A stretch of 64,000 bases of DNA from Thermoproteota archaeon (GTDB taxonomy: Archaea; Thermoproteota; Thermoprotei_A; Sulfolobales; Ignisphaeraceae). The notes below the pieces were generated by a model that saw only the letters and a program-made list of their open reading frames with translations, ran no database searches and was not told where the DNA came from. The stretch's first letter is position 1. Every line of letters begins with the position of its first letter. Both the position numbers and the translations under genes were made by a program. The stretch spans positions 1-64,000 of the forward strand of contig JAUQPB010000001.1 of NCBI GenBank assembly GCA_030550585.1, in the 5' to 3' direction. Positions 36-52,622 of the stretch are shown here, in pieces.

Positions 36-805
36 CTTTCAATTCCATTTATCGGATTCTTCGGGGGGACAAGATGCCGGCGATCAGGGTGATGCCAGAG
101 AGCTTTCAATTCCATTTATTGGATTCATACACTGTGTCGGTTATGAGGAGCTACTTTGGTAGCGTATATGGCTTTCAATTCCATTTATTGGATTCCTGTA
201 GATGTCTGTTCCTAGGTCTGCGAGCTTTGCAAGTAGGACCTTTCAATTCCATTTATCGGATTCCACAACACCACTCATAGCATTCATAGTCAGGTTTATC
301 ATGGAATCTTTCAATTCCATTTATCGGATTCGGAAAACCTGCCGAAAATTGTGAGCGAGGCTGTAAGCATCTGCAGAACACTTTCAATTCCATTTATAGG
401 ATTCTTCGTCGCTTAGGTGCCAGTCCTCGTCGAGCTCGTAAATGATGAACTTTCAATTCCATTTATCGGATTCTTGTATCGGGCTATGTAGCAGTAGACA
501 AAACAGTCTATGACAACTTTCAATTCCATTTATCGGATTCCGATGATCATGGCAACGACAATACACACTTTATGCAGAAGAACTTTCAATTCCATTTATC
601 GGATTCCCCGCAAGAACTTGAGTTAAAGTTGAATTTCGGCAGATTAGAACTTTCAATTCCATTTATCGGATTCCTTTGAAGCCATGCTAAGATCTCTTAT
701 TGTCGATAGGATCGCCTTTCAATTCCATTTATTGGATTCAAAACCAAATTTGTTGACGACCCATTTTCAGAGGAGCTTATGCTTTCAATTCCATTTATTG
801 GATTC
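36..805 (-). CRISPR. CRISPR array, 12 repeats of 24 bp (GAATCCGATAAATGGAATTGAAAG in transcribed sense), spacers 42-49 bp; probably continues past the left edge
   Basis: CTTTCAATTCCATTTATCGGATTC or 1-nt variants start at 36, 103, 172, 240, 308, 381, 450, 517, 583, 650, 716 and 782, with unique spacers. The ATTGAAAG 3' end is typical of crenarchaeal repeats. Confidence 0.98.
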
Positions 806-1140
806 TGTGCTTGGTTCTCTTGTTTGAGAGTCTCCATTTGCGGATTCGAAGCAGTTCAATATACTATGTGTTGAATCTGGTATAAAAGCTTTTAAGCAAA
901 TTAGCGTTAATCGCCATGCGATTGCCATAAAACATCAATGATCTGAAGAGACCATAGCTGCAATACAGCTATTGCAATGAACACCATAAAGAGTTTTGAG
1001 AAGGAGTTGACAAAATTGCATACACAGAGATTGTTCTCACGAAGTGATAAAAGCTTTTAAAGCCCTTAAATATCTTTGCAAACCCAGCACTGCATGTACA
1101 GAATATGGAAAGAGATGAAAGATTTAAAACTCTATTGTTT
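806..1140 (-). promoter_or_regulatory. CRISPR leader with archaeal promoter elements
   Basis: AT-rich and non-coding. Minus-strand AAAAGCTTTTATA (BRE/TATA-like) at about 881-893 points into the array, and ATAAAAGCTTTTAA recurs at about 1048. Confidence 0.7.
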
Positions 1141-2000
1141 TGTGTGGACTGGAAACCTATGTGGCTTGGGACTTTGTTTTTAGAAAGTTTTTGTTGTGTT
1201 CTCTCTTTCTAGATGTTTTGCACAATCTATAGGCCTTGAAATCAGCGTCATTGGTGTAGAGGTTTGTTTGATGAAAATGGTTTTGTCTGATGCTCGGCTG
1301 GCTACAGGTTTTAGTAGCATCTTTTCTTTGTGGCAATGGCTCTTTGCATATTGTTGTTTTTAGCTGGATTAGCATTCTCTATGAGGACACCCATGGCTTT
1401 CCTACGCTATCTATAGACTATTGCAAGGGGCCTCTTCTCAAAGGGCATACCGATTATCTATTGCTAGGCTTGTGTGGAGTGTTGTCTCAGCTGGCAATGA
1501 TGTGACTCTCTTCGCTCTAAGCCATAGTTTGTAGCAAATCTTCTACCTATTTGCTATCCACCTGGGTTTGAGCATTCACTACAACACATTCTACAGCTCC
1601 ATCAGCAGGCCGACAGCTGCAAACCATTTTTCAATTATCTGGCACTGGAAAACGCAGCCGAAACCTATAAGATCTTGGAGTGTGAAGAGTTGCTGGAGTG
1701 GCGCTAGATCCGAGCAGCCTCGTCGCGGATCTGTCCGACGACACTCACTATCCGCTGCCCCGTCCCTGCTCTACAAATTGTTTTCGAAGCGTGTAAGCAG
1801 CGGGGCCAAGCTCTTGGGCTTTCGTGCTTATATCTGTGGAAGAGGAGGTGGGGGCAAGGCAGCCTCTTAGACAATATGCAACTACAATACCGTTGTTTGT
1901 CATATATTATAGAACTGTTTTGGAGACGAATTCTCAACTCCTTTTTGAGCGATACATATATATACCCCCACTGAATAGTAGTATGCTTGGTGGCGTGGAA

Positions 2001-27371: not shown

Positions 27372-28116
27372 AGCAGTTAAAAAAGATGTTACTAAAGTTG
27401 TTGGCGCTGTTGAGATGAGGAAGTACTACAGGTTTAGAGGAGGGAGATGGTATGGGGGTATAGCAACAGGAGATGTTGTTGGCTGCAATCTGAGATGCAA
27501 ATTCTGCTGGAGCTGGAGATTTACTCACCAAACAAACAAAGGCGAGTTCTACAGCACTGCCGAGGTGTTTGAGAAGCTCTATGAAATTGCTGAGGGAAAT
27601 GGGTATACATATGTCAGGCTAAGTGGGGGTGAGCCCACACTCTCCTTCAACCACCTACTCGAACTTCTAAGACTCTTCGACGAAACAAACCACATATTCA
27701 TCTTAGAGACCAACGGTCTTTTAATAGGGAGGGAGAAGAGCTATGCAAAAGCTCTTGCAAACCATAGAGTGGTTGTTAGAGTTTCTTTCAAGGGTGCTAC
27801 AAAAGAAGAGTTCTACATGTTGACGGGAGCCAGACCAGAGTTCTACGAATATCAGTTCAAAGCGTTGGAGAACCTCTTGGAAGAGGGCTTCAAACCTGGG
27901 GAAGATGTTTACCCGGCGATAATGCTTAGCTTCAGCACAGACGAATCCTACGCACAATTCAAGAAGAGGCTGAGAGAGATACATCCAAGGCTTGTGGAGT
28001 CTATAGACGAAGAATACGTTATTCTGTACCCCCATGTAATAGAGATTCTGAAAAGGAATAGACTAAATCCGCGAATAGCCTACACACCTGATAACATACC
28101 CCAGTACATGATCTGA
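27328..28116 (+). CDS. Radical SAM protein (short archaeal family, no SPASM)
   Basis: RWYGGIATGDVVGCNLRCKFCWS, SGGEPT, LETNG. Confidence 0.9.
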   Translation: MLTRMQGYDPFQLGEAVKKDVTKVVGAVEMRKYYRFRGGRWYGGIATGDVVGCNLRCKFCWSWRFTHQTNKGEFYSTAEVFEKLYEIAEGNGYTYVRLSGGEPTLSFNHLLELLRLFDETNHIFILETNGLLIGREKSYAKALANHRVVVRVSFKGATKEEFYMLTGARPEFYEYQFKALENLLEEGFKPGEDVYPAIMLSFSTDESYAQFKKRLREIHPRLVESIDEEYVILYPHVIEILKRNRLNPRIAYTPDNIPQYMI

Positions 28117-28211
28117 GAAAAAGTTTTAGTAGCATTGCTTGTTTTGCCGATACATGTGCAACTTAGCTGCTATGATGATGGATTTACAGTTCAAATTAAT
28201 GTATCATAGCA

Positions 28212-28790
28212 TCAAGATCGGGTCTCGCCAGTCTGCTCCTTATCATTAATGATTATGTAGACTAGTGATGGCGGCGCCAAATTCAGTTCTCTAAGCACTA
28301 AGCCGTCCAAATTCGATATTAGAGCTGCTGTGGCTAGATCTAGCGACGTACTTTTCCTTTTTATGCATCTCAAATCCGTATTCTCTAAACTATTTTTGAA
28401 CTTCTCGAACACCTTCTTCAAATGCTCGGAGTGCTCTTCTATAATTGGCTCAAGTCTTCTTCGGAGCTCCTCTAGTTCTGATACAAAGAAGAATGGAATG
28501 GAGAGTTTATAGTATATCTCAACCTTGAACCTCTTAGGCTGATCCTCAGCCTCAGAAATAATTCCGCTAGACTTCAAGCGCTTCAAATGGTCAAAGACTG
28601 TTGATGGGGCTAGACCCAATCTATCAGCTATTTCCTTAAGTGTGAGTGCACCCTCTGTAGCAAGCAGATACACAATGGCCCTCCTCGTAGGATTGTCGAG
28701 CAGCATCATTTTATCCATAACCTCACCGTAGCCAATAACATAGACACGCCTGCTAAACAAATCCTTAGCATCTTTTAGCTCCTTAGACAC
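28212..28790 (-). CDS. ArsR-family winged-helix regulator
   Basis: DNPTRRAIVYLL...LTLKEIADRLGLAPSTVFDHLKRL; start at GTG 28790 or ATG 28718. Confidence 0.85.
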   Translation of the reverse strand: MSKELKDAKDLFSRRVYVIGYGEVMDKMMLLDNPTRRAIVYLLATEGALTLKEIADRLGLAPSTVFDHLKRLKSSGIISEAEDQPKRFKVEIYYKLSIPFFFVSELEELRRRLEPIIEEHSEHLKKVFEKFKNSLENTDLRCIKRKSTSLDLATAALISNLDGLVLRELNLAPPSLVYIIINDKEQTGETRS

Positions 28791-28874
28791 TCCAAACACC
28801 TGCTGCTCTAAGCTGTTTTCAAGCAATTTAACGCTTTTCGAAAATTCTTTTTTCCAGAAACTAGAATAAGGGAA

Positions 28875-28901
28875 TTCGGAAATATACGAAAAAATTATAA
28901 A
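28875..28901 (+). promoter_or_regulatory. BRE/TATA promoter with overlapping inverted repeat
   Basis: GAAAAAATTATAAA at 28888-28901; TTCG-N8-CGAA at 28875-28890. Confidence 0.55.
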
Positions 28902-28933
28902 CTCGGCAAGCAGACCTGTTCTAGGTGAAACCC

Positions 28934-29080
28934 ATGAGAACATTAAAGGCTGAGACGCGTATGAAGGAAGAGGAAAAAATAGGAATAGCAGTCCTTGAGA
29001 AGGAAATAACAAGCGTAGAGGATCCCAATTTCTGTGGGTTCTGTGGAATGTTCTGTGCTTCAATACTCTGTATGGGATAA
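28934..29080 (+). CDS. 48-aa Cys-rich peptide, putative RiPP precursor
   Basis: MRTLKAETRMKEEEKIGIAVLEKEITSVEDPNFCGFCGMFCASILCMG*, with an AGGTGA RBS and an upstream promoter; below the ORF-track cutoff. Confidence 0.7.
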   Translation: MRTLKAETRMKEEEKIGIAVLEKEITSVEDPNFCGFCGMFCASILCMG

Positions 29081-29202
29081 GGAGGCTGTAGTTACTTGAA
29101 ATCCAAGAGCATAAGCACGTGTTTAAGACATATCTATGGAGTTGAGAGTCTAATGCATTTAGTAAAACTATATATAGAGTTTAAATGCATGGTGTGATAA
29201 AT

Positions 29203-30107
29203 ATGGGTGGCATAGTTATAGATGTTGAGAATGTGACTAAGATTTACCCCAATGGTGTTGTAGCAAACAGAGGTGTGTCGCTTAGGGTATGTAGTGGTGA
29301 AATTGTGTGTTTGGTGGGCCTAACGGTGCTGGCAAGACTACGCTTATTCGTCAGATAATGGGTCTTCTTAGACCTACTTCTGGGAGGGTGCGCGTATTAG
29401 GTGTAGATCCATTTATGGAGCAACATGTTGTTCGCAAAAATGTTGGCTACGTTCCTCAATCACCCCTTACCTTTCCTGCACATAAGGTTTCTGAGGTTTT
29501 AGAGTATGTGGTTGATCTAGCTGGTGAGAAGCGTGTTAGGGTTTATGAATTGCTAAAACTTCTGGATCTAGAGGATGCAAAGAATGTGCTCGGTTATCAG
29601 TTATCCCTAGGTCAGCGCAAGCTATTGCTAATAGCTATGGCTCTAGCTAAAAATCCTAGGATTCTTGTATTAGATGAGCCTACCACATTTGTTGATATTA
29701 TTAGAAAGAGGGTTGTGTGGGAAACCATTCTAAAGCTGAGGAGCCAGAATAAAACGATGCTTCTCGTTAGCCACGATGTTGAGGAGGTTAAAAGGCTTTG
29801 CGATAGAGTATATGTGATGTTTTCAGGGAGGGTAGTATATAATGGGGGTATCACCGATATCAGCAAACTTGGTGGTGTAGAGCTGAGAATATACACGCAT
29901 AAACCTTCTGAAGTTGCGAAGAAGATAAAACATGGTGTGACAATGACACAGGAAAACACTTTGCTAGTCAGCTATACAACACTTAGCGAAGCGCTTAAGG
30001 ATTTGAGTAGCTTAGCGGATTTGTCGGCAAACGGTCTTGAGCTTAAGCTTGTTCTAGAATACCCTTCAATCACATCAGCCCTGCTCTCTATAGTAGATAG
30101 CAGGTGA
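29203..30107 (+). pseudogene. ABC ATP-binding protein with a 1-nt frameshift near 29319
   Basis: MGGIVIDVENVTKIYPNG...EIVCLVG is in one frame and GPNGAGKTT...LDEPTT in another. Confidence 0.82.
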
Positions 30108-30119
30108 GGGGTAGGAGCG

Positions 30120-30781
30120 ATGGCAGTTAAAAATGTTTGGAGGACAATGATTTTCGAGCTTAAGTCCCTACGGCTTTTCTGGTTTCCTATAACAACCATG
30201 ACTATGTTGGTTCCCCTCTCCTATCTTTCAATAGATTTACTGTGGTTTCCACATTCCTAACGCTGGTACTGCCCTTGGCTCAGCGGGTAAGCAACATGTT
30301 TGAAGATGATGTGATCGAGTTGTTGGCGTCTCTACCCCTGGGCATGGGGGAAATGCTATTGGCTTACATAGGGACATATACAGCACTTTCGATGCCAGTA
30401 ATCATCGAATTTATAATCGTAATAACCTTATCTCTAGGAAGAGTGGATGGAGTGCTCCTAGCCTCTGGGCTGTTCACACTATGGTGCATAGCGCTAGAGA
30501 TTAGCATCTTGCTGGGCCTTACCATCAAAAATAAGCTTAAGCTAGATCCACTACTATCACTAATCTTACTAGCAACAGTAGTGTTTACCCCAGCGTTCTA
30601 CTCGATCAACAGCTTGGAAAATCCATTTAGAGCAGCAGTACTAGTCAATCCACTCACACATGTGGTGCTAATAATAAGAGCTAGTATGGGAATTGACGAG
30701 GGGGTAAGCCCCATCACCTCACTAGCATGCCTAGGAATAGCACAGATAACGCTCGCCATAGCCCTACTATTCAAAATGTGA
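30120..30781 (+). pseudogene. ABC-2 permease, disrupted near 30230
   Basis: The N-terminus from ATG 30120 is out of frame with 30242-30781 (IELLASLP, NPLTHVV). Confidence 0.7.
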
Positions 30782-30914
30782 AACACATCTCTAAATATAA
30801 TTGAGAGGAAATAGCTATGGCCACCTCATTTTAGTTAAAGTAGGGGTTACAATCTATATACAATATATAAACTGTTTGACATGTCAAGGTATCCGCATAT
30901 ACTTGTAGAGCTCA

Positions 30915-31107
30915 GTGAAAAGAGAGGAAGACTATGTGATAGCGATAAGAGTTGCTAAGATAGAGAACTTTAGCGTGGCTGAGGTTCCCAAGATAGGTAT
31001 AGACTATCTGAAGAAAGTGGCTGAAAAGCTTCTAGAGCTCGGCAAGATCAGGGCTGTGGTTTTTGATGTGACTCCAAAAAACTCTGGCAACAATAGGGTA
31101 TGAGTAG
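30915..31107 (+). pseudogene. guaA: 3' fragment of GMP synthase (guaA C-terminal domain)
   Basis: YVIAIR...AVVFDVTPK, then frameshifted TLATIGYE*, matching the GuaA end (VVYDITSKPPATIEWE). Confidence 0.65.
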
Positions 31108-31138
31108 TGTTTAAATGGAGTGGATAAAATTACAAAAA

Positions 31139-31531
31139 CTATATTTCGACTTTGTATAGAGATGGGCATATATTACACTTTGTAATGTCTATCGATGGCT
31201 CTATCTCCTTATGTTTTTTGCATAGATATTTCCTAACCATGAAAGCCATTACGATTCTATCCAACTCTCTCACAACATCGTATTCACTCATATGATTTTC
31301 GATAATCCTGTTCGCCAAACCCTCTACAAGCTTCACAATATCTGTATACTCATCTATATTGATGTAGCTTCCCCTCTCCCCACTCAAATATCGTGTTACT
31401 AGAGATTGTGATATACCCAACTTCCTAGCTATCTCCACACCCATTAAACCCTTTTTCGCAAGCTCTAAAACGAGTCTTCTTTTTATTGCTGGGACAACAT
31501 ATTTTGATGCTAGCTCGTATGTGGATCTCAT
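31139..31531 (-). CDS. HTH transcriptional regulator with C-terminal Cys motif
   Basis: VVPAIKR...EIARKLGISQSLVTRYLSGERG...LCKKH...CNIC. Confidence 0.85.
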   Translation of the reverse strand: MRSTYELASKYVVPAIKRRLVLELAKKGLMGVEIARKLGISQSLVTRYLSGERGSYINIDEYTDIVKLVEGLANRIIENHMSEYDVVRELDRIVMAFMVRKYLCKKHKEIEPSIDITKCNICPSLYKVEI

Positions 31532-32856
31532 TATAGAACCACTATCTTCTTCTTTATCTCCTCAACATTGTTTATAACGTCTGTAAAGTCTTCGACTATC
31601 TCGAGAGTTCCTAGATACTCTCCCCTATCATTTTTGACAGCGACTATAAGTACTCTCAATATCCTGTCTCCTTGTCTAGTCCAAAACTCTCTATACTCTG
31701 CTTTGCCGGCTTTCAGCTCATCCACGGTTTCCCTAACCAACTTCTCTAGTCTTGGTGGGTGGCAAAACTCTATTCTTCTACCAAGAATGGTCTCAGTTCT
31801 TATGAACCCCTTCAACAGTTTGCTTTCATTGAATAGTGTTACCCTATCATTTTTATCCGCATATGTTATTTCGATTGGAATTGATTTGAGTAGTGCCTTA
31901 ATCTCCTCAACATTTAGATACCCCGTACCCAGATCTATATCGTTCTCCTCTACAATATTGTAATCATCTGGCTTCAAACCCATTTTAGCGACAACATCCT
32001 TGAACTCCTGTGGGAGCTTCTCAAGTTGCTGTGGCTCTACAACAGGCTTTAGCTCATGTGGCAAAACCGGTTTTGAGCCCGGCTTCCAAACACCGTCTTT
32101 CGCCTCGACTATCCACCCAATCCTATTAGCAATCTCGTATATAGCAGCCCACTCACCCTCTGTGAATAGCGCCCACACAGCTGGGAACAGGATCTTGTTT
32201 TCTCTAAACACAAGCTCTCCAATCTCTCTAGCAATCTCCATTCCAAGCTCTCCAACAGCTCTGACATCCTCTAGTGATCTGCTGTTCCGGGCCTTTGTGG
32301 CAAGATCAAACAACTTTCTGAGCTTTACGATAATCTGGTCTTCTCTACCCCACAAAACTCTTGGAACTGCTATGATCCCCCTTCTCTCAAGATATGGAAA
32401 TATGAGCATCTGTACCTTTCTATAGTGGCTTCTTAAAGCCCTTAGATTACTAGCTAAGTCCATTAGTATTGAGAGTTGCCTCAAAGCCTCGTCAGCATCC
32501 CTAGCCCTTAAGAGTATGGAGGACTGGAGGCCAAGAGCCTCAGCCTGCTTCAATATCCACTCATTCTCTCTCATGAGCAGGTCTACAGGATGGCCCTTTG
32601 GAACGTCTGAGAGCTCTCTACTGGCAAGATACTCTCTAAACAGCTCTACATGCAGATCACAGAGTTTTAGAATATCGTTAATTGATATGCCCTCGCCAAC
32701 AAGTTGCTGCTCTATCAAAGGAATTTCAAATGGGGATATCTGCTTAAGTATATCTCCAAACCTCTTCTTGAGCTCCTCTACACTCTCTCCTCTGTGAATG
32801 GCCTTCAACATGTTTTTAACTAGCTCTGCCTTTTTATTCATATCCAAACTTGACAT
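31531..32856 (-). CDS. DUF438/hemerythrin/PAS domain protein
   Basis: IEQQL...LCDLHV, GHPV, ENKILFP, CHPP. Confidence 0.88.
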   Translation of the reverse strand: MSSLDMNKKAELVKNMLKAIHRGESVEELKKRFGDILKQISPFEIPLIEQQLVGEGISINDILKLCDLHVELFREYLASRELSDVPKGHPVDLLMRENEWILKQAEALGLQSSILLRARDADEALRQLSILMDLASNLRALRSHYRKVQMLIFPYLERRGIIAVPRVLWGREDQIIVKLRKLFDLATKARNSRSLEDVRAVGELGMEIAREIGELVFRENKILFPAVWALFTEGEWAAIYEIANRIGWIVEAKDGVWKPGSKPVLPHELKPVVEPQQLEKLPQEFKDVVAKMGLKPDDYNIVEENDIDLGTGYLNVEEIKALLKSIPIEITYADKNDRVTLFNESKLLKGFIRTETILGRRIEFCHPPRLEKLVRETVDELKAGKAEYREFWTRQGDRILRVLIVAVKNDRGEYLGTLEIVEDFTDVINNVEEIKKKIVVL

Positions 32857-33092
32857 GTGTCAAGCACCGATTAGAATAGATGGCTGGAGAGCAATATAAG
32901 AATAGCGATAGTGAATCGCAATGAAAAACCCATAAAGAGTTTTACATCGTCACATCATTTTTACACAACATCGCAAGTCGTTTATAAAGCCCTTACAGTT
33001 GTATGTTTACATCTATGCTCTAAGACAAGGATCTTTTCAAAAGGAAAATCTATATATAGGTCGCCTTTGCCATAGTATATACGGGGTCTTGC

Positions 33093-33428
33093 ATGCCCCT
33101 CTGGAAATGCCAGGTGTGTGGATTTGTATATGAGGGTCCAGAGCCCCCTGAGAAATGTCCTAAGTGTGGCGCCCCCAAAGAACAGTTCAAACAGCTTTCA
33201 CCACAAGAAGAGCAGCTTGTTCTAAGGTCTAGAAAGACTAACTATCTCCACATGAAGGCTCTATCACTATTAAGAGAGCTTCAGGCTGTTGCTGAAGAGA
33301 TTATCCAAGATAATCTGGATCCACCATGTGTTAAGATAGCAAATGAGGAGAAGGAGTTCGCTTTAACGATGATTCAGAAGATTATGGCTGAGCTTGAAAC
33401 CCATATGAAGAAGGGCAAGTGGGGCTAA
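33093..33428 (+). CDS. Rubredoxin-like domain protein
   Basis: WKCQVCG...[11 protein letters not shown]. Confidence 0.88.
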
Positions 33429-33488
33429 ACCCAATAGAATGCCATGTTTAAAAATGATTTGATTTAATAAAAAATGTTTTTTATAGCC

Positions 33489-34364
33489 TCATTCTCTTTG
33501 CTCGCCTCTGCCAACCATCTTTGTTAGTGCTGTTAGCAGCTCTAGTGGAATGACTATCTTCGTAGATGGTGCTTCTGCTATCGATTTGAGCGCCTCTAGA
33601 TACTGAAGCAGAATGGCGTTTGGCCCTAGCTTCGCCGCCGCCTCGTTTATCAGCTCAAGTGCCTTCGCCCTTCCCTCTGCCACAAGTATCTGGTACTGTT
33701 TCTCTCCCTCACCCTTCTTTATCATTGCCTCTCTCTGGCCCTCAGCCTCTAGAATAGCCGCTGTTCTCTTGCCATCGGCCTCAGCTATCATAGCCCTCCT
33801 ATTTCTTTCAGCCGCCATCTGCTTTATCATCGCCTCTTGAACCTCCTTTGGCGGTTTAATCTCTTTTATCTCAACTGATGTTACTTTTATCCCCCATCTA
33901 TCTGTGACCTCATCTAGCCTAGCCCTAAGAGTAGAGTTTATGTACTCTCTTTTTGCAAGCACATCATCTAAAAGCATATCGCCTATTATAGCCCTTAGAG
34001 TGGTTATTGCTATACCTGTAGCCGCATTAACATAGTTTTGAACTGCTGTAACTGCTTTTATAGGATCGAATATCTTCATATAGACAAGCAGATCAACATC
34101 TACTGGCGCATTATCCTTTGTTATGCATGTCTGTGGAGGGATATCAATTACAAACTCCCTCAAGTCGATTGTTACACCAGTGTCTATTATGGGTATCAAA
34201 AAGACTATTCCAGGCCCCTTAACACCAACAAGTTTACCAAGCCTAAACACAACCAATCTTCTATACTCTGGCACAACCTTTATCCTTGGAACCACAATTG
34301 CTAGTATAATTATCAAAAACAGTATTAGTAGAAAGATTGAGACCACATCCATATCTGCCACCAA
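33489..34364 (-). CDS. SPFH/stomatin family protein
   Basis: VVFRLGK, ITKDNAPV, WGIKVTSVEIK, QMAAER. Confidence 0.93.
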   Translation of the reverse strand: MVADMDVVSIFLLILFLIIILAIVVPRIKVVPEYRRLVVFRLGKLVGVKGPGIVFLIPIIDTGVTIDLREFVIDIPPQTCITKDNAPVDVDLLVYMKIFDPIKAVTAVQNYVNAATGIAITTLRAIIGDMLLDDVLAKREYINSTLRARLDEVTDRWGIKVTSVEIKEIKPPKEVQEAMIKQMAAERNRRAMIAEADGKRTAAILEAEGQREAMIKKGEGEKQYQILVAEGRAKALELINEAAAKLGPNAILLQYLEALKSIAEAPSTKIVIPLELLTALTKMVGRGEQRE

Positions 34365-34399
34365 AACACATAGTTTTTGGCTGTAAAATAAATGCTTTT

Positions 34400-35641
34400 C
34401 TAATCAATTTTCTCGACATATAGCTTTAGACCATCGACCCTAACTACCCTCACTCTAGAGCCTGCTGGTATAGCCCCCCTAACAGAGTATGCTGTCCAAT
34501 CCTCGCCAAGTACATAGACAACGCCAGGGCTTGTTTCACCAATATCTGTTTTGGCGATGCCTATAGAGGATAGAAGCTGTTGCTCCAAAGATGGTCTTCT
34601 TCTCCTAGCGGTTTCAACAGCTTTATACGCTGCAAAAACCATTATAGATGATATTGTTGCCAAGCCTCCAATAACTATGTAGACAGCTTGGGTAAGCAGC
34701 TGTGGGGGTGTTAGATAGATCTGGTAGGCAGCTCCAATAACGAGTAGTGCTATACCACTAACCCCGAATAAGCCGAACCCAGGTGTGAACATCTCTACTG
34801 CTAATAGTGTAGCCCCTGAAACAGCTATTATCAATGCAAATATGTCTGGGGGTATAATATTCATTGAGTAGAGAGATAGGGAAATAAGTATTGCGCCAGC
34901 TACTGCATATCCCTGGAAACCAGCTGTCAGAATCTCAGCCACAACCAAAATAGCTCCAGAGACTAGAAGAATCATAGACACTATTGGCAGTGAAAATACA
35001 GAGACTAGCCTATCCCATAAACCAGGTCTAAACACACCCGAGACAGAGACTCCAATAGCTTTTTCAACCTCCTCTAGAGAGTCAGCTCTTCTAGCAAAAC
35101 CAATCGATATAGCCTCATCAGCTGTTAGAGTCTTTCCCTCTCTAACCATAGACTCTGCAACCATAACAAGAGTCGCATTGTTGCCGAAGAGCCTCTGAGC
35201 CAAAGACCTGAACCTGGCAGCTACATACTCAACTGTTTTCTTGTCAGATGGCTGGGGAATAGCATCGCCAATAACAGAGCCAGAGCCCATGAAAATACCT
35301 CTGCAAGCCAATGCAACCATAGATGCAGCTGAGACAGCATATCCACCTGGGGGGACCCACGCATAGCAAGTTATGTTTCTCTCAACAATTGTATTAACAA
35401 TCTCGTCAGCAACAGATAGATACCCACCATAGCTATTGATACCCAGAATAACAACCCTATCACCAGCATCCCTAAAAACCCTCTGAAGAAAAGTCAATGC
35501 ACCACCATCTACATTCATAGCCAGATCAACAAAAACAGCATTAGAATCCCCAGCAAACGCTATAGAGACTAAAGAGGCTAGATAACCTAAAACAACCAAA
35601 ACAGCTATTACAAAAACCCTTGAAACAGCCATAGCATACAC
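34400..35641 (-). CDS. nfeD: NfeD-family membrane protease (stomatin partner)
   Basis: INSYGG, AVSAASM, GSVIGDA.P and a C-terminal OB fold, upstream of the SPFH gene. Confidence 0.88.
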   Translation of the reverse strand: MYAMAVSRVFVIAVLVVLGYLASLVSIAFAGDSNAVFVDLAMNVDGGALTFLQRVFRDAGDRVVILGINSYGGYLSVADEIVNTIVERNITCYAWVPPGGYAVSAASMVALACRGIFMGSGSVIGDAIPQPSDKKTVEYVAARFRSLAQRLFGNNATLVMVAESMVREGKTLTADEAISIGFARRADSLEEVEKAIGVSVSGVFRPGLWDRLVSVFSLPIVSMILLVSGAILVVAEILTAGFQGYAVAGAILISLSLYSMNIIPPDIFALIIAVSGATLLAVEMFTPGFGLFGVSGIALLVIGAAYQIYLTPPQLLTQAVYIVIGGLATISSIMVFAAYKAVETARRRRPSLEQQLLSSIGIAKTDIGETSPGVVYVLGEDWTAYSVRGAIPAGSRVRVVRVDGLKLYVEKID

Positions 35642-35923
35642 CCTAAATCATTTCGACTCCATTTATCGAGCTACACTATTTACTTTATCAATCTGTTCTC
35701 ACAAAACAAAAACTTATAATACTTTATGGTGTACACTATGTTGGATCGAGCATAAAACTTTATGGCTATGAGAACAGCGAAAATTAATTTGCAATCCAAT
35801 GTAGAATGATAATAAATGATTATAAATTATTGAACTGAGTATTACTGGTACACTCTATAAACATTGTTTTCCACCGTTAAAAAAAAGCTTGCTCAGCTAT
35901 ACATTATATTATGAGGTGAGCAG

Positions 35924-37201
35924 ATGGCTCTTACCACAATCTTTCGTGGGCATAGAACACTGGTTGTGTCAGCCCTTGTAGCTACCGTAGCAATAATAAT
36001 ACATGGTGTTGCGCCTGGATATTTCGCGATAAACAGTATTGATGTTATGAATAGTTTTAGCTCCTCATTGCAGAGTATCGGAGGATTTCTGAAGAACTCT
36101 ATAAGAGACTTTATAGGGAATTTGTTTAGTTGCGCCACTTGTACATATGATCATAAGGATTGTATTATTATACCTGGTAAGTATTGTAACGGGACTGGTG
36201 TGTTCTCCAGGGAGATGATGATCTATGGTGGAACCAATGGTTCGTGGATCGACAGGATCTATTTAAGAACATCCATAGTTCCTGTCCCAAACAACTATGC
36301 CTATGCTATTGCGCATTCCCTTAGGCAGAGAGTTGGCATTAGCGTCAATATTGATGAGCAGCATCTATACACAATAATATTGAGGATAATTAGGCATACA
36401 CCTGTTAAGGAGAGATGCAGTAGCGAGGAATGTGTTAAGATTTATAGGGTTCCAAGCGATGAGGCAATAGCATTTCTGGTTCTTAAAAATGGTAGCGGTA
36501 TATCGATATATGTTGCCAAATTCAATGGCAGTAGGGTTGTCAGCATCTCTGCAGCTAGATACCTTGTTTATAGTCGAGAAATTGTTCTAGAGAATAGGCG
36601 GAGCATTAGGGATGAAGTGAAATCAAGGCTCAACATCACAGAAAACGATATTGAGAGGCTTGGCATCCCCACAGAGGTTGTAGAGAAGCTTATTGTCTAT
36701 CGCTATAAACTTGATTTGAATAGTCTTGGCAAAGAATATACAACTATCGATGGCATCAACATTGATCCCGCAATGGCCCCGGGACCAGTTCTATATGAGC
36801 TAAGGTCCCAGATAGCAACAGGCTCCATAGTCTATGCCGAGACCATACTCAGAATAGAAACTTATTGGTCTCCAGTAATAGGGGTGATAGTATCGGCTAT
36901 AGACAGAAGTGAATGCAAATCCTATACCCCAACAATGCTTGTATCTGACTGTTATCACAAAGTATATCTAACTGCATCGACAGTTGAAGGAGAGGCTTAT
37001 GGAAAATATGTGCTTATTGTAGGCATACTCCCACCGATATACATAACCTACTGTGCTGGGGCAAAAATGGCTGTAAATAGAACAACTGGGCTACCTATTG
37101 TTGGCAATACACGTGTTTGTTGGTGGCTTGGCTCACCGCCACCAAGTCCGAGGGGATCCACCGGGTGTAAAGATATGTGCCCAGTTTGTATATATGGGTA
37201 A
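35924..37201 (+). CDS. Secreted Cys-rich hypothetical protein
   Basis: 425-aa ORF with GAGGTGA RBS, N-terminal hydrophobic segment and multiple Cys pairs. Confidence 0.75.
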   Translation: MALTTIFRGHRTLVVSALVATVAIIIHGVAPGYFAINSIDVMNSFSSSLQSIGGFLKNSIRDFIGNLFSCATCTYDHKDCIIIPGKYCNGTGVFSREMMIYGGTNGSWIDRIYLRTSIVPVPNNYAYAIAHSLRQRVGISVNIDEQHLYTIILRIIRHTPVKERCSSEECVKIYRVPSDEAIAFLVLKNGSGISIYVAKFNGSRVVSISAARYLVYSREIVLENRRSIRDEVKSRLNITENDIERLGIPTEVVEKLIVYRYKLDLNSLGKEYTTIDGINIDPAMAPGPVLYELRSQIATGSIVYAETILRIETYWSPVIGVIVSAIDRSECKSYTPTMLVSDCYHKVYLTASTVEGEAYGKYVLIVGILPPIYITYCAGAKMAVNRTTGLPIVGNTRVCWWLGSPPPSPRGSTGCKDMCPVCIYG

Positions 37202-37368
37202 AGCCTGTCATAGGCAATGCAACAACTCTTTCCAAAGGATTCCAAAATCAGGGAAGGGTAATGTGTTTTCGAAACATTTTATGTGTCTAGCTGAAAGATT
37301 CTGACCTCTCTGTTTTTTAATTGGGGTAGGGGCAGCAATGCTAAAAGCAATGTTTTTTGTGTTTGGAG

Positions 37369-38609
37369 CTATTTGCTTCTTTTCTTTATTAAAATGTTTA
37401 TTGCTATAGCTATTACCGCTGCTATTATTGAGAATATTGCTGAGAGGAGAGCTGTTGTAATGAATGAGCCTGTTAAGTCCCTGGCTAAACCTCCTATTAG
37501 TGGACCAGCTATGGATGCTGCCATTACAACTGATGTTTGTATACCCAGTAGTTTCCCCATGTTGTTTTGTCCAAACAGCTTTGGTATTAGAAGCATATGT
37601 GCAACTGGTTCTCCGCCAAATGCTAGAAATCTCAGCCAAATCATTGAAACTACCGCCTCTATGCTATGTTTGGTAAAGCTTATCGCTAAAAACATTGATG
37701 CTGCTTCTACAGCGTATAGCAGTGGGAGAGTCTCTAAAACACCTAGGCGCATAGCTATAAACCCCCATGCAAAGGCTCCTACACTTTGCAGCACACCCGA
37801 TACGCTCATGACCATTGGTACATAGCTTCTAGATATAGTAGTGCTATCCATGCCCAGGTTCTTGCAGAAATCTGTTGTTATAGGTGCTAGGAACTGGAGG
37901 AGTATAGTGGATGACATAGCTATGAAGAACTCTCTAGATAGGAAAAAGCGAAGAATATTGGAGCAAGTAAGAATATGAATGTTGCCGGGATTTTTGCAAA
38001 GGTTGTCGAAGACCCTTTTACAGAATCTCTATATAGGCTTTGTCTAGAGTATATAATGCCGCAAACAATCATTGCTATAAACGATACTATTGATAGAGCA
38101 AGAAATACTTCAAACACGTCAAACACCTCTATCATTGCAGATATTATAGGAGACCACATAGTCAGAGCTAGATAGCTAGCGCTTTGGGCAATAGCCAAGG
38201 CAATGGCAGGTTTGTCAGAGAATGACATTAGCAGAGCGGGATTAACGCTCAACACTAGAGCTGTTGCGCCAAGGCCAGCCACAACATTTCCCGCATACCA
38301 CATCCACATAGATAAACCCCATGAGAAAAACTTCATGGGGTAAAATACAAAGGCTGATAGAAGCTGTGTTAAAGCACCTATGTAAATAACAACCGAGGGC
38401 CCCCTCCTATCGTATAGACCACCAAGAAGATAAGATGAGAACACAGATGCCACACCCGATAGCATAGGACCTAGGGACAGCAGTGTAACAGCGCCAATGC
38501 TATAGTAGCTCATTAGATGTGAATAGAATATCGAGATATTCATTCTCCAACTAGATACGAGAATAGCTATTAAACCAGCCAACATGAGAACCAATCTCTT
38601 GCCGTTCAT
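37369..38609 (-). pseudogene. MFS transporter split by a 26-bp insertion (37930-37955)
   Basis: GGLYDRRGP and GGLARDLTGSF MFS motifs; removing the insertion restores the frame. Confidence 0.85.
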
Positions 38610-41813: not shown

Positions 41814-42503
41814 TTACGCAACCCCCTTTCTAACGCTTTCGATATATCTTGCTATGTCTGCAAACTCTGTTTTTCGCTGTGTTCTTGGTTTCCCAATAGG
41901 TATTATGTACATTGGTGTCTCGCCACTTTTCAGAGTTAATATCTCGGCAACTCTTCTATCATCAAATGCTCCTATAGCGACTGTTCCAAGGCCTAGGGTT
42001 GTTGCCATCAGATATATGTTTTGCCCTGCATGACCCACATCCATAGGCACATATCTTGTTCTACCCCTCTCGCCATAGAATCTAGTTGTTCTTTCAAAAA
42101 CAGCTGTTATCACAATGTCTATGGGTGCTTCTCTAACCCATGGCTGATTCAAAGCCGCTTTTGATAGAGCCTCTCTATAGTCCCCATGCTTTATCAGTTC
42201 AATTGCATGTGCTCTATCGTTGTATTTGTATATTGCTGGTTCTAGGTATGTACTATTTGTTAAAACACTTTTCTCTCCGACGACAACATATATTTCTAGT
42301 GGGTATGTTGCTCCAGCGCTTGGAGATGATCTAAAACCGTGTTTGGGGTCTGTAACTCCATAGGCAGCCCACAAAAGCATTGAAAGCTGCTCAACTGTTA
42401 TGGGATCAGGTGAAAACTCTCTAACACTTCTCCTCAAAAGAATAGCCTCCTCAACAGAAACGCTAGAAACCTTTTTAGGGAAAGGCAGTAGTATTATGGT
42501 CAA
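41814..42503 (-). CDS. SagB/ThcOx-family nitroreductase-like dehydrogenase
   Basis: RRSVREF, SPSAGATYPLE, GHAGQNIYL, IGAFDD. Confidence 0.9.
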   Translation of the reverse strand: MTIILLPFPKKVSSVSVEEAILLRRSVREFSPDPITVEQLSMLLWAAYGVTDPKHGFRSSPSAGATYPLEIYVVVGEKSVLTNSTYLEPAIYKYNDRAHAIELIKHGDYREALSKAALNQPWVREAPIDIVITAVFERTTRFYGERGRTRYVPMDVGHAGQNIYLMATTLGLGTVAIGAFDDRRVAEILTLKSGETPMYIIPIGKPRTQRKTEFADIARYIESVRKGVA

Positions 42504-43228
42504 ACTTGAGTCACCTCAAATTGTTTATAGATCTTCTCAAGCTCTTTCACAGCTACTTCAAGCTCATCAATGTTATTAATACCAGCTGTAATAACGATAT
42601 CGTTATTCTCTGAAATATCTGGTCTTGCATACCTTGGTTTAAATAATTCAACAGTTCTTTTTATGAATAAGAGGTTTTGCACATTTGTAATGTCATTAGC
42701 ATATTTTGCGATACCCTCACCCTCCAGATGCATGCCATATTCCTCAACATAAACATTGAACGAAATTCTGTTTCTGCCACTATATTTATATGCACTAACA
42801 ATTTTTTCGCCGTTTCTCAATGGAGTTGCAACTCTATAACCCAAGTCTTGGAGTTTTTTCACAACGTCTTTGAATCTTTCATCAATTACATGCTCAAATA
42901 CTTCAACGGGCCCACTCCAACCAGCAATTGTGTGCAGAGCATCCACCACAGCACCAATATGTATCACTGGTGTGTAGGGCTGTGAAAAGCCGTGGAACAT
43001 GCATATAGCTTTTTGTGGTGGCCAATAGTATACACCTCCCCTCTTAACACGGTATACAAAATCTTTTTCGCTGAAATCTATTTTTATTGGCGATGGAAAG
43101 CATATCTCTTGTTTCCATGTAGTAGCCTCAGATTTAAATGGAATATAAGACTTTATACAATTGCTATGATTCTCAACATCTATCACAAGAGAGCTATTTG
43201 TATTCTTAAAAAGCACCTCTAAAAGCAT
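42500..43228 (-). CDS. Cyclophilin-like fold (DUF369-like) protein with extra C-terminal domain
   Basis: WKQEICF, GVYYWPP.KAICMFHG. Confidence 0.65.
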   Translation of the reverse strand: MLLEVLFKNTNSSLVIDVENHSNCIKSYIPFKSEATTWKQEICFPSPIKIDFSEKDFVYRVKRGGVYYWPPQKAICMFHGFSQPYTPVIHIGAVVDALHTIAGWSGPVEVFEHVIDERFKDVVKKLQDLGYRVATPLRNGEKIVSAYKYSGRNRISFNVYVEEYGMHLEGEGIAKYANDITNVQNLLFIKRTVELFKPRYARPDISENNDIVITAGINNIDELEVAVKELEKIYKQFEVTQV

Positions 43229-49854: not shown

Positions 49855-51192
49855 TTACATCATATGCTTGGATATGTTTATATTTCTTACAAGCACAAAT
49901 GGTACTTTCGATGGTGTTGAAACCTCCCACCACTGAATTCTGTATAGCTCTCTTCCCACCATCTCAATATTGTTCAATATATTCGATAGTTTGTCCGCTA
50001 TCCTGATTTTTGTAACAGGCCTGGCTATTCTGCCATTCTCTATATAGAATATTGCATCTCTAGCAACAGTGGAGAAGATCCCTTCGACATAGTTCTGAAG
50101 CCTTGTATACCAGTTGTTTGTTACCAAAATGCCTCTCCTAACCTCCGATACCATCTCATCCAATGTCGCATCACCAGGCCTTACAACAATGTTCCACGGT
50201 CTTGGGCTTATCCAACCAGCATTAGCCGTCGAGCTTGCTCCCAGCAACCTAGCCGTTTTTGTGTTATGTAGAAATGTCTTCAGCGTGCCACTCTCTATAA
50301 TCGGCTTGTTGAATGTCTCTAGGGCCTCATCATCAAAGCTTCTGTAACTTGGCAGCTCCCTGTTTCTTGGCTCGTCCAAAATGGTTAGATGCTCTGATGC
50401 GATTCTATCCCCAGGCCTGTTCTTCATGAACATCGACCAGCCCATTATAACCCAGTATGCCGATGCCATCGAAACTATGTAGTCAAGCAGATTGCCGAAT
50501 ACCATGGGGCTTAGAATAACATCGTAAACGCCTGGCTCAATCTCGCTTCTACCTCTAGACTCTACAGCGTATCTAGATGCTATAAAAGCCATTGTCTCAA
50601 GCTCTTTAGTGTCTAGAGATGTTGATGTGAAGCACCATTGTCCACTTCCATCCGGTTCTGCAAATGCTCTGACATAGCTTTGCAGAAACGTCTTTCTCTC
50701 TTCTAGCAATGCCCCCTTAGAAGTTGCTAAAACAGTTTCTGTTTCACCCATTTGAAGCATTCCAGCCACGCTATCTATCTTCTCCCTGTGGGCAGCCTCT
50801 ATAACCATTTCAGCAAACTTGCCGATATTGTCTATATTATTGTGTATCCCCTTGTCGAAGACCTCTTCCCTATATGTAATCTTGCTTGGCTCGGGCAGAG
50901 GTGCATAGATAGGCGATTCCTCTATCCTTCTAGACAACGACAATAGCGTCTCAACTGGTTTGTATAGCTCCTCTAGACTCTTTGGCTCGAATCTGAGAAC
51001 AAATATTCTCTTCTCCTTAGCTAGGTAAAGATCTATTGTAACCCCCTTCCAGTTCTGAACCACACTAACCTCGCTATTAGCTATTTTAGTCATCACCACG
51101 TCTTTAATAGTCGCTTCAATAGCCACATCTTCAAAACCCATTTTGCTAAGTTCGTTCACGAGCCTAGCCACAAAATCAACATCTATGTTCAT
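49855..51192 (-). CDS. pmbA: TldE/PmbA family protein
   Basis: FDDEA, IESGTLKTFLHN, TANAG; follows tldD. Confidence 0.85.
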   Translation of the reverse strand: MNIDVDFVARLVNELSKMGFEDVAIEATIKDVVMTKIANSEVSVVQNWKGVTIDLYLAKEKRIFVLRFEPKSLEELYKPVETLLSLSRRIEESPIYAPLPEPSKITYREEVFDKGIHNNIDNIGKFAEMVIEAAHREKIDSVAGMLQMGETETVLATSKGALLEERKTFLQSYVRAFAEPDGSGQWCFTSTSLDTKELETMAFIASRYAVESRGRSEIEPGVYDVILSPMVFGNLLDYIVSMASAYWVIMGWSMFMKNRPGDRIASEHLTILDEPRNRELPSYRSFDDEALETFNKPIIESGTLKTFLHNTKTARLLGASSTANAGWISPRPWNIVVRPGDATLDEMVSEVRRGILVTNNWYTRLQNYVEGIFSTVARDAIFYIENGRIARPVTKIRIADKLSNILNNIEMVGRELYRIQWWEVSTPSKVPFVLVRNINISKHMM

Positions 51193-52622
51193 TGCACCGC
51201 CACCCCAAGTCTAACACTCTTTAACCTTACATCAGGTCCCCCAAACCATACCGGAACACCTTGCATCGGCTCACCCTTGCCACATGTCCCAGCATAGAAT
51301 CTGAGCTCCTTCCCAACAGCATCTATGCTACTATAAAAGGATTTTGTTGTAAGCTCTAGAACAGGGTTTCTAACAAGCTTTGTCGGCTCTCCATGCTCAA
51401 TTAGATAAGCCTCTAAGCCAACGTATCTCTGGCTCCACCTCTCATCATCTATGTTCCACTCCATATAGCTTTTTATGTACACCCCCAGCTTCACATCCTC
51501 TAAGAGCTCCTCGAACTTGTGGTCACCTGGTCTTAGATATGTGTTGGCCATTCTCACTATAGGCTCGCTCGTATAGTCCATGGCTCTGGCAGCCGCATTA
51601 CTTTCAACACCAAATGTCTTTGCGGTTTCTCTATTATGCAGAAACTCGTTTATCAAACCCTCTTTATATAGGTAGCGGGGTCTGGCTGCAACACCCTCGT
51701 CATCGTATAGATAGAACCCGTAGCTGCCAGGGATTGTAGGGTCGTCAACTACAGTTGCATTCTCATTCCCTATTCTATAGCCGATCATATTTGGCTTTAT
51801 GAAGCTCTTCCCAGCCTGGGCAGCCTCTCTACCAAGTATCCTGTCAGCCTCACTTGGATGGCCACAGCTCTCATGAACTATTAGACCGACTATTTCACTG
51901 CCAACAACAACTGGCACACTATCCTTTGGCGGCTCTACAGCTGTTAGAAGTATCTCCTCAAGCTTTCTAACCTCATCAGCAGCAGCCCCAACAACATTCC
52001 ACTTCTCAAGCCATTCCAAGCCACCTGAAGCCCCTAATCCTCTAGCTCTCTGGATATAGCCTTTCTGCGGATGGTAAACAACTATGTTGTAGTCCATGGA
52101 TATTCTTGGAATAGAGCTCTCCACATAGGCCCCATCACTGTTAGCCACAATCTTCTCCTCAACCCACTCTACATAAGAAAGCGTTGCAACAGGCACCTTC
52201 GCCTCCCTAACAGAATTTGATACAGAGTTCCAGAATAGCTTATGCAAACCAATCTTCTCCTCAAAATCAATGTTAGAGAATTTCTTCAAGGGATTCACAG
52301 AGTATTTGACCCTGCCAAGCCTTGCCTCAGACAATTCAATAGGCCTCTTAACCACATTCCTATGCGTTCTCGCTCTAGCAATAGCCTTTTGAACAGCCTC
52401 TCTAACACCATCCCTACTCAAATTGTTTGTTGATGCAAATCCTAGAACGCCGTCGACTAGAACCCTTATTGCAATCCCTTCGCTTATCTCGCTATAAGCA
52501 GATATTAGCACCCCATTTCTAGAGCTCATACCCTGAGACTCTAGCCTGTGGTATCTGGCCTCAGCATATTTTGCCCCAGATTCCCCTGCAATCTGCAGGG
52601 CGTATAACAACAAGTCCTCCAA
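51189..52622 (-). CDS. tldD: TldD family metalloprotease
   Basis: HESCGHPSEAD, YDDEG, RMANTY, CGKGEP. Confidence 0.92.
   Translation of the reverse strand: MEDLLLYALQIAGESGAKYAEARYHRLESQGMSSRNGVLISAYSEISEGIAIRVLVDGVLGFASTNNLSRDGVREAVQKAIARARTHRNVVKRPIELSEARLGRVKYSVNPLKKFSNIDFEEKIGLHKLFWNSVSNSVREAKVPVATLSYVEWVEEKIVANSDGAYVESSIPRISMDYNIVVYHPQKGYIQRARGLGASGGLEWLEKWNVVGAAADEVRKLEEILLTAVEPPKDSVPVVVGSEIVGLIVHESCGHPSEADRILGREAAQAGKSFIKPNMIGYRIGNENATVVDDPTIPGSYGFYLYDDEGVAARPRYLYKEGLINEFLHNRETAKTFGVESNAAARAMDYTSEPIVRMANTYLRPGDHKFEELLEDVKLGVYIKSYMEWNIDDERWSQRYVGLEAYLIEHGEPTKLVRNPVLELTTKSFYSSIDAVGKELRFYAGTCGKGEPMQGVPVWFGGPDVRLKSVRLGVAVQ

Follow-up and report, generated by a model that had tools for sequence, protein, structure and literature searches.

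A decaying peptide gene cluster in an Ignisphaeraceae archaeon and its probable origin in a Desulfurococcales radical SAM system

Genes and lesions at the locus

The locus considered here lies within the first 64,000 nucleotides of contig JAUQPB010000001.1 from a Thermoproteota archaeon of the family Ignisphaeraceae (GenBank assembly GCA_030550585.1), a stretch referred to below as the window, and is centered on a 48-codon open reading frame (ORF) for a cysteine-rich peptide, with a divergent regulator gene on one side and the genes of an ABC transporter on the other (Table 1). A previous sequence-only reading had described it as an unannotated locus of the type that encodes peptides made by the ribosome and then modified after translation (RiPPs). 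The ORF, its AGGTGA motif, the TTCG-N8-CGAA inverted repeat and the stretch resembling a B recognition element (BRE) and TATA box were all found at the positions given there, and the label "unannotated" held only in part, since the protein collection contains a 39-aa gene call for the ORF, P0021, starting at the internal ATG 28961. The inverted repeat, TTCGGAAATATACGAA, occupies 28875-28890 upstream of the ORF, and the A/T-rich BRE/TATA-like stretch runs from 28888 to 28901. The pattern TTCG-N8-CGAA occurs a single time in the 64-kb window, with 0.16 occurrences expected and at least one found in 13 of 100 shuffles, so its uniqueness, taken alone, is weak evidence.

The divergent ArsR regulator reported upstream of the peptide was borne out by a match to the Pfam model HTH_5 (arsR family) of 47.3 bits, above the cut-off of 22. 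HTH_20 also matched, with 45.9 bits, and because several other winged-helix models pass as well, only the superfamily of the protein is secure. Seventeen homologues, sharing 37-98% identity, were aligned with it end to end; the search gave one further match, weak and partial. As these homologues are 187-197 aa long (the longest, P0002, has 248 aa), the true start of the regulator is probably GTG 28790, giving 192 aa, and not ATG 28718. The regulator frame stays open for 283 codons on the minus strand (28212-29063), running over the intergenic region and, in antisense, over the peptide gene, and P0002 seems to be over-called in the same way as this 283-aa ORF of the window.

Downstream of the peptide, the genes are broken. 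In related loci, described below, a radical S-adenosylmethionine (SAM) enzyme, here called the maturase, stands directly after the peptide, and in the window only its end was found. By tblastn, 29081-29176 corresponds to residues 394-425 of the maturase of one such locus, L016, with 19 of 32 residues identical (E 6e-11 in a 330-nt database); the remnant was also recovered by a whole-genome search and ends in a TGA at 29195-29197. Residues 1-393, about 1.2 kb of the gene, are gone. The sequence-only reading had held the maturase to be either deleted or encoded in trans, and the C-terminal remnant of 38 codons (29081-29194) bears out the first of these options.

That reading had also described an ABC-2 ATPase and a permease, both disrupted, and two-frame alignments confirmed this. 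The ATPase gene, which matches ABC_tran with 99.4 bits, bears a –1 frameshift inside the Walker A sequence GPNGAGKT near 29320, where one C has been lost (GGCCT in place of GGCCCT); against the proteins of loci L015 and L016, residues 1-39 align at 59-63% identity in one frame and residues 36-303 at 51-53% in the other. The permease matches ABC2_membrane with 23.5 bits, under the cut-off of 26.9. Its frame changes near 30234-30257, part of the first third is missing, residues 47-56 of the L015 protein remain unaligned, and similarity runs ten codons beyond the premature TGA, to 30812. A fifth gene of the related loci, encoding a protein of about 110 aa, is absent. The window's copy has neither a maturase nor an intact exporter.

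Table 1. Positions of the features at the locus, in window coordinates
Feature	Position	Strand	Remarks
Precursor peptide ORF, 48 aa, intact	28934..29080	+	ATG 28934, TAA 29078-29080; 39 aa if ATG 28961 is used
Ribosome-binding motif AGGTGA	28921..28926	+	ahead of ATG 28934
Putative conserved promoter/operator, TTCG-N8-CGAA overlapping a BRE/TATA-like box	28875..28901	+	
Winged-helix (ArsR/MarR-type) regulator, 192 aa, intact	28212..28790	-	Pfam HTH_5, HTH_20; end-to-end homologues
Remnant of deleted radical SAM/SPASM maturase, last 38 codons and stop	29081..29197	+	tblastn against L016
ABC ATPase pseudogene, frameshifted by –1 in Walker A near 29318-29322	29203..30107	+	two frames against L015/L016
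ABC-2 permease pseudogene, 52 nt deleted at about 30234, early stop TGA at 30779-30781	30120..30812	+	two frames against L015
Island, whole decayed cluster, 2.7 kb	28113..30812	.	in only 1 of 17 genomes of the genus

Intact clusters and their maturase

Searches with the peptide itself were of limited yield. In 41 related genomes only chance-level matches were obtained (E 0.0025-0.58, mostly within long ORFs), a word-index search gave back nothing but the gene call P0021 of the window itself, and no model for the peptide was found in Pfam (two peptides scanned) or NCBIfam (three peptides scanned). An exhaustive HMMER search of 1.84 billion representatives gave two matches, the real one being P0020, the closest relative of the window peptide, with 38 aa, the same N-F-C-x2-C-x3-C core and an identity of 58% over the matched stretch (53% in the peptide alignment A2, below). 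The second match, a 2246-aa protein without the stretch, was rejected as spurious.

The peptide family was reached by way of the regulator. An alignment of 17 regulator homologues (A1) was used to retrieve loci and yielded seven on genome contigs, recorded as Desulfurococcaceae or Thermosphaera-type metagenome-assembled genomes (MAGs), and 18 on metagenome contigs; several are near-duplicates from different data sets, and the loci are not all independent. A peptide ORF of 35-45 aa divergent from the regulator was present in all 23 assessable loci (L021, with 1 nt of upstream DNA, and L031, with 101 nt, were left out of this count), the regulator being always divergent from the peptide operon. 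In the alignment of 18 distinct peptides (A2), Leu-Glu is invariant within an (I/V)(I/V)LE(K/R) strand of the leader, Asn-Phe and two cysteines (C-x3-C) are invariant, and 17 of the 18 carry an extra cysteine right after Asn-Phe. The core of the family reads N-F-C-x2/3-C-x3-C and is followed by a short hydrophobic tail, with 6-10 residues after the last cysteine. The ORF and its cysteine pattern are thus conserved in the homologous loci.

Directly after the peptide, a radical SAM enzyme of about 440 aa is encoded in 22 of 22 loci with continuing DNA, and precursor and modification enzyme co-occur accordingly in every one. Beyond it, 10 of the 14 loci that reach past the maturase carry genes for an ABC ATPase (about 300 aa), an ABC-2 permease (248 aa) and the protein of about 110 aa, so that the intact loci hold a radical SAM enzyme exactly where the sequence-only reading had proposed to look for one, between precursor and transporter. 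The other four (L019, L020, L039 and L040) have no ABC genes after the maturase and only a protein of about 108 aa. The fifth protein gave a weak NitrOD5 Pfam match below the cut-off and no NCBIfam match, and its matches in the Atlas are hypothetical archaeal proteins only. On one metagenome contig (L026:1-498, minus strand), no stop codon separates the precursor ORF from the maturase, which continues it in frame; either precursor and enzyme are naturally fused or the stop codon was misread in sequencing. In the otherwise intact cluster L017, two ORFs of 155 and 96 aa stand in place of the permease (588-1335, minus strand), owing either to a frameshift or to an assembly error.

The upstream region of the peptide gene was compared in the window and 16 related loci. 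This region shows TTCGGAAA-N3-ACGAAA followed by T/A-rich TTTAAATA-like boxes; TTCG-N8-CGAA was found in 13 of the 16 related loci and TTAG-N8-CGAA in the other three. A strict composite promoter pattern was recovered in 11 of the 16, placed 54-79 nt before the start, the window's copy lying 59 nt before ATG 28934. Because the element is conserved at the same place across these loci, its reading as a promoter/operator is reinforced, and the divergent regulator would act at this conserved TTCG-N8-CGAA/TATA site. Moreover, GGTG-type motifs stand 5-12 nt ahead of the chosen peptide starts in the related loci, like the AGGTGA of the window, and start 28934 is favored because of these ribosome-binding motifs in its relatives. 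Judged by this recurrence in the same placement, the peptide, the TTCG...CGAA/TATA element and the GGTG motif do not appear to be chance features.

Four maturases of intact loci were scanned against family models. All four match the Pfam model Radical_SAM with 54-59 bits (cut-off 29.5), and Fer4_12 was also matched. The best NCBIfam match is CefB (NF038107), with E 1e-54 to 1e-62 over residues 1 to about 400 (185-210 bits, cut-off 600), and alignments over nearly the whole maturase were also obtained for the geopeptide maturase (177-182 bits), TIGR04463 (151-168), Clo7bot and PapB (104-123), all of these scores lying far under the respective cut-offs of 340-600 bits. Among solved structures, the closest relative is the SCIFF maturase CteB (5WGG, E 9e-17). 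In an alignment of six maturases (A3), the CX3CX2C motif is invariant (C96, C100, C103), as are eight C-terminal cysteines (C329, C331, C348, C382, C386, C392, C396 and C407), which include C-x3-C-x5-C-x3-C. Alignments to SPASM-type models extend to about residues 400-426. A SPASM domain has about seven cysteines for two auxiliary clusters, and its canonical motif begins with x2; here the first spacing of the C-terminal motif is x3. These features mark the family, as judged from its sequences, as a new branch of presumed thioether-forming radical SAM peptide maturases, outside every curated equivalog.

A model of the complex between the L017 maturase and its own peptide reached a score of 0.73, the best of three controls reaching 0.01; the mark set for this score is reached by 58 of 80 solved complexes and by 2 of 110 mismatched pairs. 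Contact agreement between runs was at least 49% and the partner's predicted local distance difference test (pLDDT) at least 44. In the model, leader residues 7-17 are placed on enzyme residues 24-31 and 45-60, and core residues 27-37 in the barrel, which supports, as a prediction, leader binding by the N-terminal domain, a putative RRE-like domain.

The island, its strain variants and the readings weighed

The window's copy is foreign to its surroundings in its distribution. DNA homology to the closest genome, G007, ends on the left at 28112 (79% identity) and resumes on the right at 30812 (92-99%), the two flanks lying on different contigs in G007, and searches of the genus's 16 other genomes gave no homologue of the regulator, peptide or maturase. 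In a sample of the class, maturase orthologues were found in 10 of 351 genomes and regulator homologues, besides G000, in 9 of 350, all of them in genus g55 of another family. The cluster is patchy there too, being found in 10 of the 63 genomes of family f10. One of the 10 maturase copies in g55, the main host genus, is itself decayed (G198:C1:68185-69087, L053), covering only model positions 125-425 and interrupted by 13 stop codons. Weaker maturase relatives of about 400 aa (E 1e-41 to 1e-60) occur in nine larger genomes of family f13, another family of the order, for example G308:C1:561852-563102 (L054), and may mark a further peptide-maturase family.

The flanks of the island were themselves found to differ. 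The right flank (30812-38580) shares 99.3% DNA identity with G007 over at least 7.5 kb, including a 441-aa protein (31534-32856) that is 100% identical, and the left flank is only 79% identical in DNA (86% in protein). On these identities, the right flank seems to stem from recent recombination of two species of the genus, the tract reaching exactly to the island. Within this shared stretch, a 62-aa ORF (30915-31103, plus strand) contains only the C-terminal domain of GMP synthase (PF00958, 30.9 bits) and is either a gene fragment or a stand-alone domain.

Contigs from public hot-spring runs were aligned to 27800-31100 of the window, which revealed several strain variants. Run X1 may be the one from which this DNA comes. 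Another, X3, from a different study, is represented by a 2410-nt contig that spans 27800-29681 with 10 substitutions and no gap; because it is gapless across both sites, X3 carries the frameshift in Walker A as well as the junction left by the maturase deletion. On another X3 contig, 52 nt that the window lacks are present across 30234, position 30779 has C for T (CGA, not TGA), and the permease has a 1-nt deletion of its own at 30346. The X5 contig covers 29010-29239 with zero differences from the window. The single X4 contig (707 nt, depth 6) is more divergent and has one Gly-Phe-Cys unit less, giving C-x3-C-x4-C; in it, the 3′ end of the peptide gene is joined almost directly to the last maturase codons, so that even the remnant is gone, and the peptide ORF remains open. 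X4 leaves parts of the stretch uncovered, the Walker A site among them, and since its 30209-30234 piece is shorter than 31 letters, only X3 bridges the 52-nt difference. These variants suggest that the maturase was lost early, in a single event common to the strains or in two, and that the pump then broke in a different way in each strain.

The variants also bear on the end of the precursor ORF, whose last nine or so codons may derive from the maturase gene. The maturase search of the whole genome aligned 29051-29179, reading through the TAA of the precursor, as such an origin would lead one to expect; against it, the F-C-A-P/S-L stretch that follows the third cysteine is also present in P0020, and X4 retains it though it has no maturase remnant.

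Taken together, these observations make it very probable that the locus in the window was acquired by horizontal transfer and is a decayed version of a cluster, conserved in Desulfurococcales, for a ribosomally made, radical-SAM-modified cysteine peptide. The existence of the peptide family, the order of its genes, the lesions and the limits of the island are direct observations. The chemistry of the cross-link, export, the function of the operator and the relic status of the surviving ORF are inferred. In the intact layout, a winged-helix regulator is divergent from an operon of precursor (about 38 aa), radical SAM enzyme (about 440 aa), ABC ATPase, ABC-2 permease and the protein of about 110 aa. 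The enzyme, with a putative leader-binding N-terminal domain and a SPASM-like C-terminal domain for two clusters, would dock the leader strand on the former, thread the core into the barrel and link two or three cysteine sulfurs to carbons of other core residues, forming thioethers of the sactipeptide type (to an alpha carbon) or the ranthipeptide type (to a beta or gamma carbon); the ABC pump would export the cross-linked product, and the regulator would act at the TTCG-N8-CGAA site overlapping the BRE/TATA box. In this genome the pathway would be dead, the maturase being deleted, the ATPase and permease broken and the fifth gene absent, with the regulator and the precursor ORF intact. The earlier proposal of a RiPP-type locus stands on the strength of the maturases in its intact relatives; it had not extended to a foreign island or to a relic that makes no product.

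Several points weigh against this interpretation. The counts of gene context exclude the window's closer relatives, that is, the regulators P0002-P0004 (58-84% identity) and the peptide P0020. The GC content of the island (0.40-0.44) is no different from that of its flanks and no direct or inverted repeats bracket it, and for both reasons it shows no sign of a mobile-element mechanism. The precursor and regulator are intact in three strain variants (X1, X3 and X4) and could still do something. No curated maturase model reaches its cut-off, the enzyme class being assigned by sub-threshold full-length alignments and cysteine motifs, and the Pfam model SPASM was not matched at E ≤ 0.01 in the maturases scanned. 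Finally, the score of the complex model may partly reflect memory of solved CteB-type complexes and was obtained with author-made, not calibrated, alignments.

The intactness of the precursor and regulator invites readings in which they are kept by selection. The most far-reaching, which we regard as doubtful, is that, once the maturase was gone and as the pump decays, the pair has been kept by selection, for example as an "eavesdropping" module sensing the cross-linked peptide of neighboring Desulfurococcales in the same spring, the product of the intact family being a new thioether topology with a cysteine at every fourth position, anchored on Asn-Phe, and serving as an archaeal cell-to-cell signal. 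In a more general and unlikely form, the regulator and an unmodified peptide would be retained as a metal-binding or signaling peptide, or as a sensor of a product of neighbors. Such retention would agree with a peptide ORF that is identical in X1 and X3, with indels inside the X4 ORF that sum to multiples of three, and with a full-length regulator, while the exporter genes gather different lesions in different strains. Strain divergence is little, however, with 10 differences in 1.9 kb in X3 and a single 707-nt contig of depth 6 for X4, and because it is so small, the intactness of a 147-nt ORF is expected by chance.

Instead of an exported natural product, the peptide of the family could give rise to a cofactor that stays inside the cell, or be a scaffold modified for internal use, comparable to pyrroloquinoline quinone (PQQ) or mycofactocin, and the four of 14 loci without ABC genes (L019, L020, L039 and L040) would fit such a role, as would the fact that SPASM enzymes also make cofactors. 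This is made improbable by the dedicated ATPase and permease directly downstream in the other 10 loci, by best model matches to peptide cross-linkers and not to cofactor synthases, by a core that is variable except for N, F and the cysteines, as is typical of secreted RiPPs, and by the patchy occurrence of the cluster in family f10 (10 of 63 genomes).

Maturation in trans, which would leave the precursor a functional RiPP substrate and for which the sequence-only reading had named candidates (SPASM gene 5329, the adjacent radical SAM gene, the SagB-like gene and TldD/E), is very improbable. In its favor, the ORF, promoter and regulator are intact, and the genome has the SPASM-type enzyme and, 13 kb away, a SagB-family protein that passes its cut-off (41817-42503, TIGR03605, 122.7 bits against 78.4). 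Against this, the cognate maturase is demonstrably deleted, the exporter is broken as well, and no maturase orthologue was found elsewhere in a genome that is 99.9% complete, so that the in-trans option is not supported. The best other match in the genome, gene 5329, is 25% identical over the core only (E 2.9e-7), its best NCBIfam matches are heme enzymes of the NirJ2/AhbD type, with PqqE-type, mycofactocin-type and AlbA models also appearing, and it is present in 11 of 16 sister genomes, in none of which the peptide was found. The adjacent radical SAM gene, at 27319 (27328 in the earlier reading), has no SPASM part and is carried by all 16 peptide-less sisters. These results speak against both genes as maturases. 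From the island end at 30812, it is 11-20 kb downstream to the SagB-family gene and the TldD/E-like pair. Together with an adjoining gene for a 242-aa protein without family, the SagB-family gene occupies 41817-43228 (minus strand), and the TldD/PmbA-like pair (49858-52622, minus strand), which stays below cut-offs, lies 7 kb past the SagB region; this region could be a separate peptide-modification locus.

Finally, it is extremely unlikely that errors of assembly or sequencing in a MAG account for the frameshifts and the absence of the maturase, as the hot-spring metagenome origin of the genome and the position of the Walker A lesion inside a short C run might suggest, given that X3 contigs from another study (depth about 190) reproduce the junction and the frameshift without a gap, that X5 is identical over 29010-29239, and that the permease is damaged by a deletion of 52 nt and a substituted base, neither of them an error of the homopolymer kind.

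Significance and comparison with known systems

Radical-SAM-dependent RiPP clusters (ranthipeptides and sactipeptides) have been detected by antiSMASH across archaeal phyla, with 962 biosynthetic gene clusters in Thermoproteota, and archaeal products are described as scarcely known, according to the part of that survey available to us (PMC12144867). In that part, no Desulfurococcales family, precursor motif or regulator is named, unlike the cluster reported here, and the literature search found no paper that joins Desulfurococc-, radical SAM and precursor peptide. The cluster family is a real one of RiPP type and apparently undescribed, although it may be listed in the supplement of PMC12144867. 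As far as the literature searched shows, there is no crenarchaeal radical-SAM-modified peptide with known structure.

The analysis defines a compact, well-conserved cluster of five or six genes from hyperthermophiles, with 18 distinct precursors, a thermostable maturase and a conserved operator, as a target for heterologous reconstitution. Moreover, the window's copy offers what appears to be an evolutionary snapshot of a cluster that has moved into another family and is now being dismantled: all strains seen lack the maturase, the exporter is breaking in a strain-specific manner, and both regulator and precursor are still complete. A practical lesson for genome mining is that an orphan cysteine-rich precursor beside a broken pump was correctly read as belonging to a RiPP locus, here a relic, and that the missing enzyme can be recovered from relatives.

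Among known systems, the closest curated model is CefB/CefA (NF038107), which gives the best score and whose CefA-type precursor, judged by the model name, also has periodic cysteines. It differs in that the four maturases scanned reach only 185-210 of the 600 bits required, and in that the archaeal family has a cysteine at every fourth residue (C-x3-C-x3-C) or C-x2-C-x3-C, with an invariant Asn-Phe before the first cysteine. To our knowledge, the product of CefB itself has not been determined.

The ranthipeptide systems PapB/freyrasin and CteB/SCIFF (NF047865, TIGR03974; PDB 5WGG) resemble the archaeal family in having a CX3CX2C core; their leader-binding N-terminal domain and C-terminal auxiliary-cluster domain match what is predicted for the archaeal enzymes, and in both the precursor gene adjoins the enzyme gene. 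In the CteB-CteA structure, the leader strand sits on the N-terminal domain, and a similar placement is predicted for the L017 maturase. The matches are nonetheless far from the thresholds (PapB 104-123 bits against 340, SCIFF 70-86 against 425), and the archaeal precursors have neither the conserved C-x3-D/E repeats (A2) nor the SCIFF motif.

Sactipeptides of the thuricin CD type have C-x3-C-x3-C donors, a short hydrophobic core, a radical SAM/SPASM enzyme and an ABC exporter. The archaeal clusters are alike in placing three cysteines, four residues apart, beside a radical SAM enzyme and an ABC exporter. They are unlike them in that only 6-10 residues follow the last cysteine, too few for the nested hairpin of known sactipeptides, and in the model matches, RumMC reaching 51-77 bits against 720 in three maturases (among the best 25 families) and AlbA appearing only for gene 5329. 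Placed beside these systems, the family would belong to a known kind, that of thioether-type radical SAM peptides, and the window's copy, to judge from its genes, would be a non-producing relic of it.

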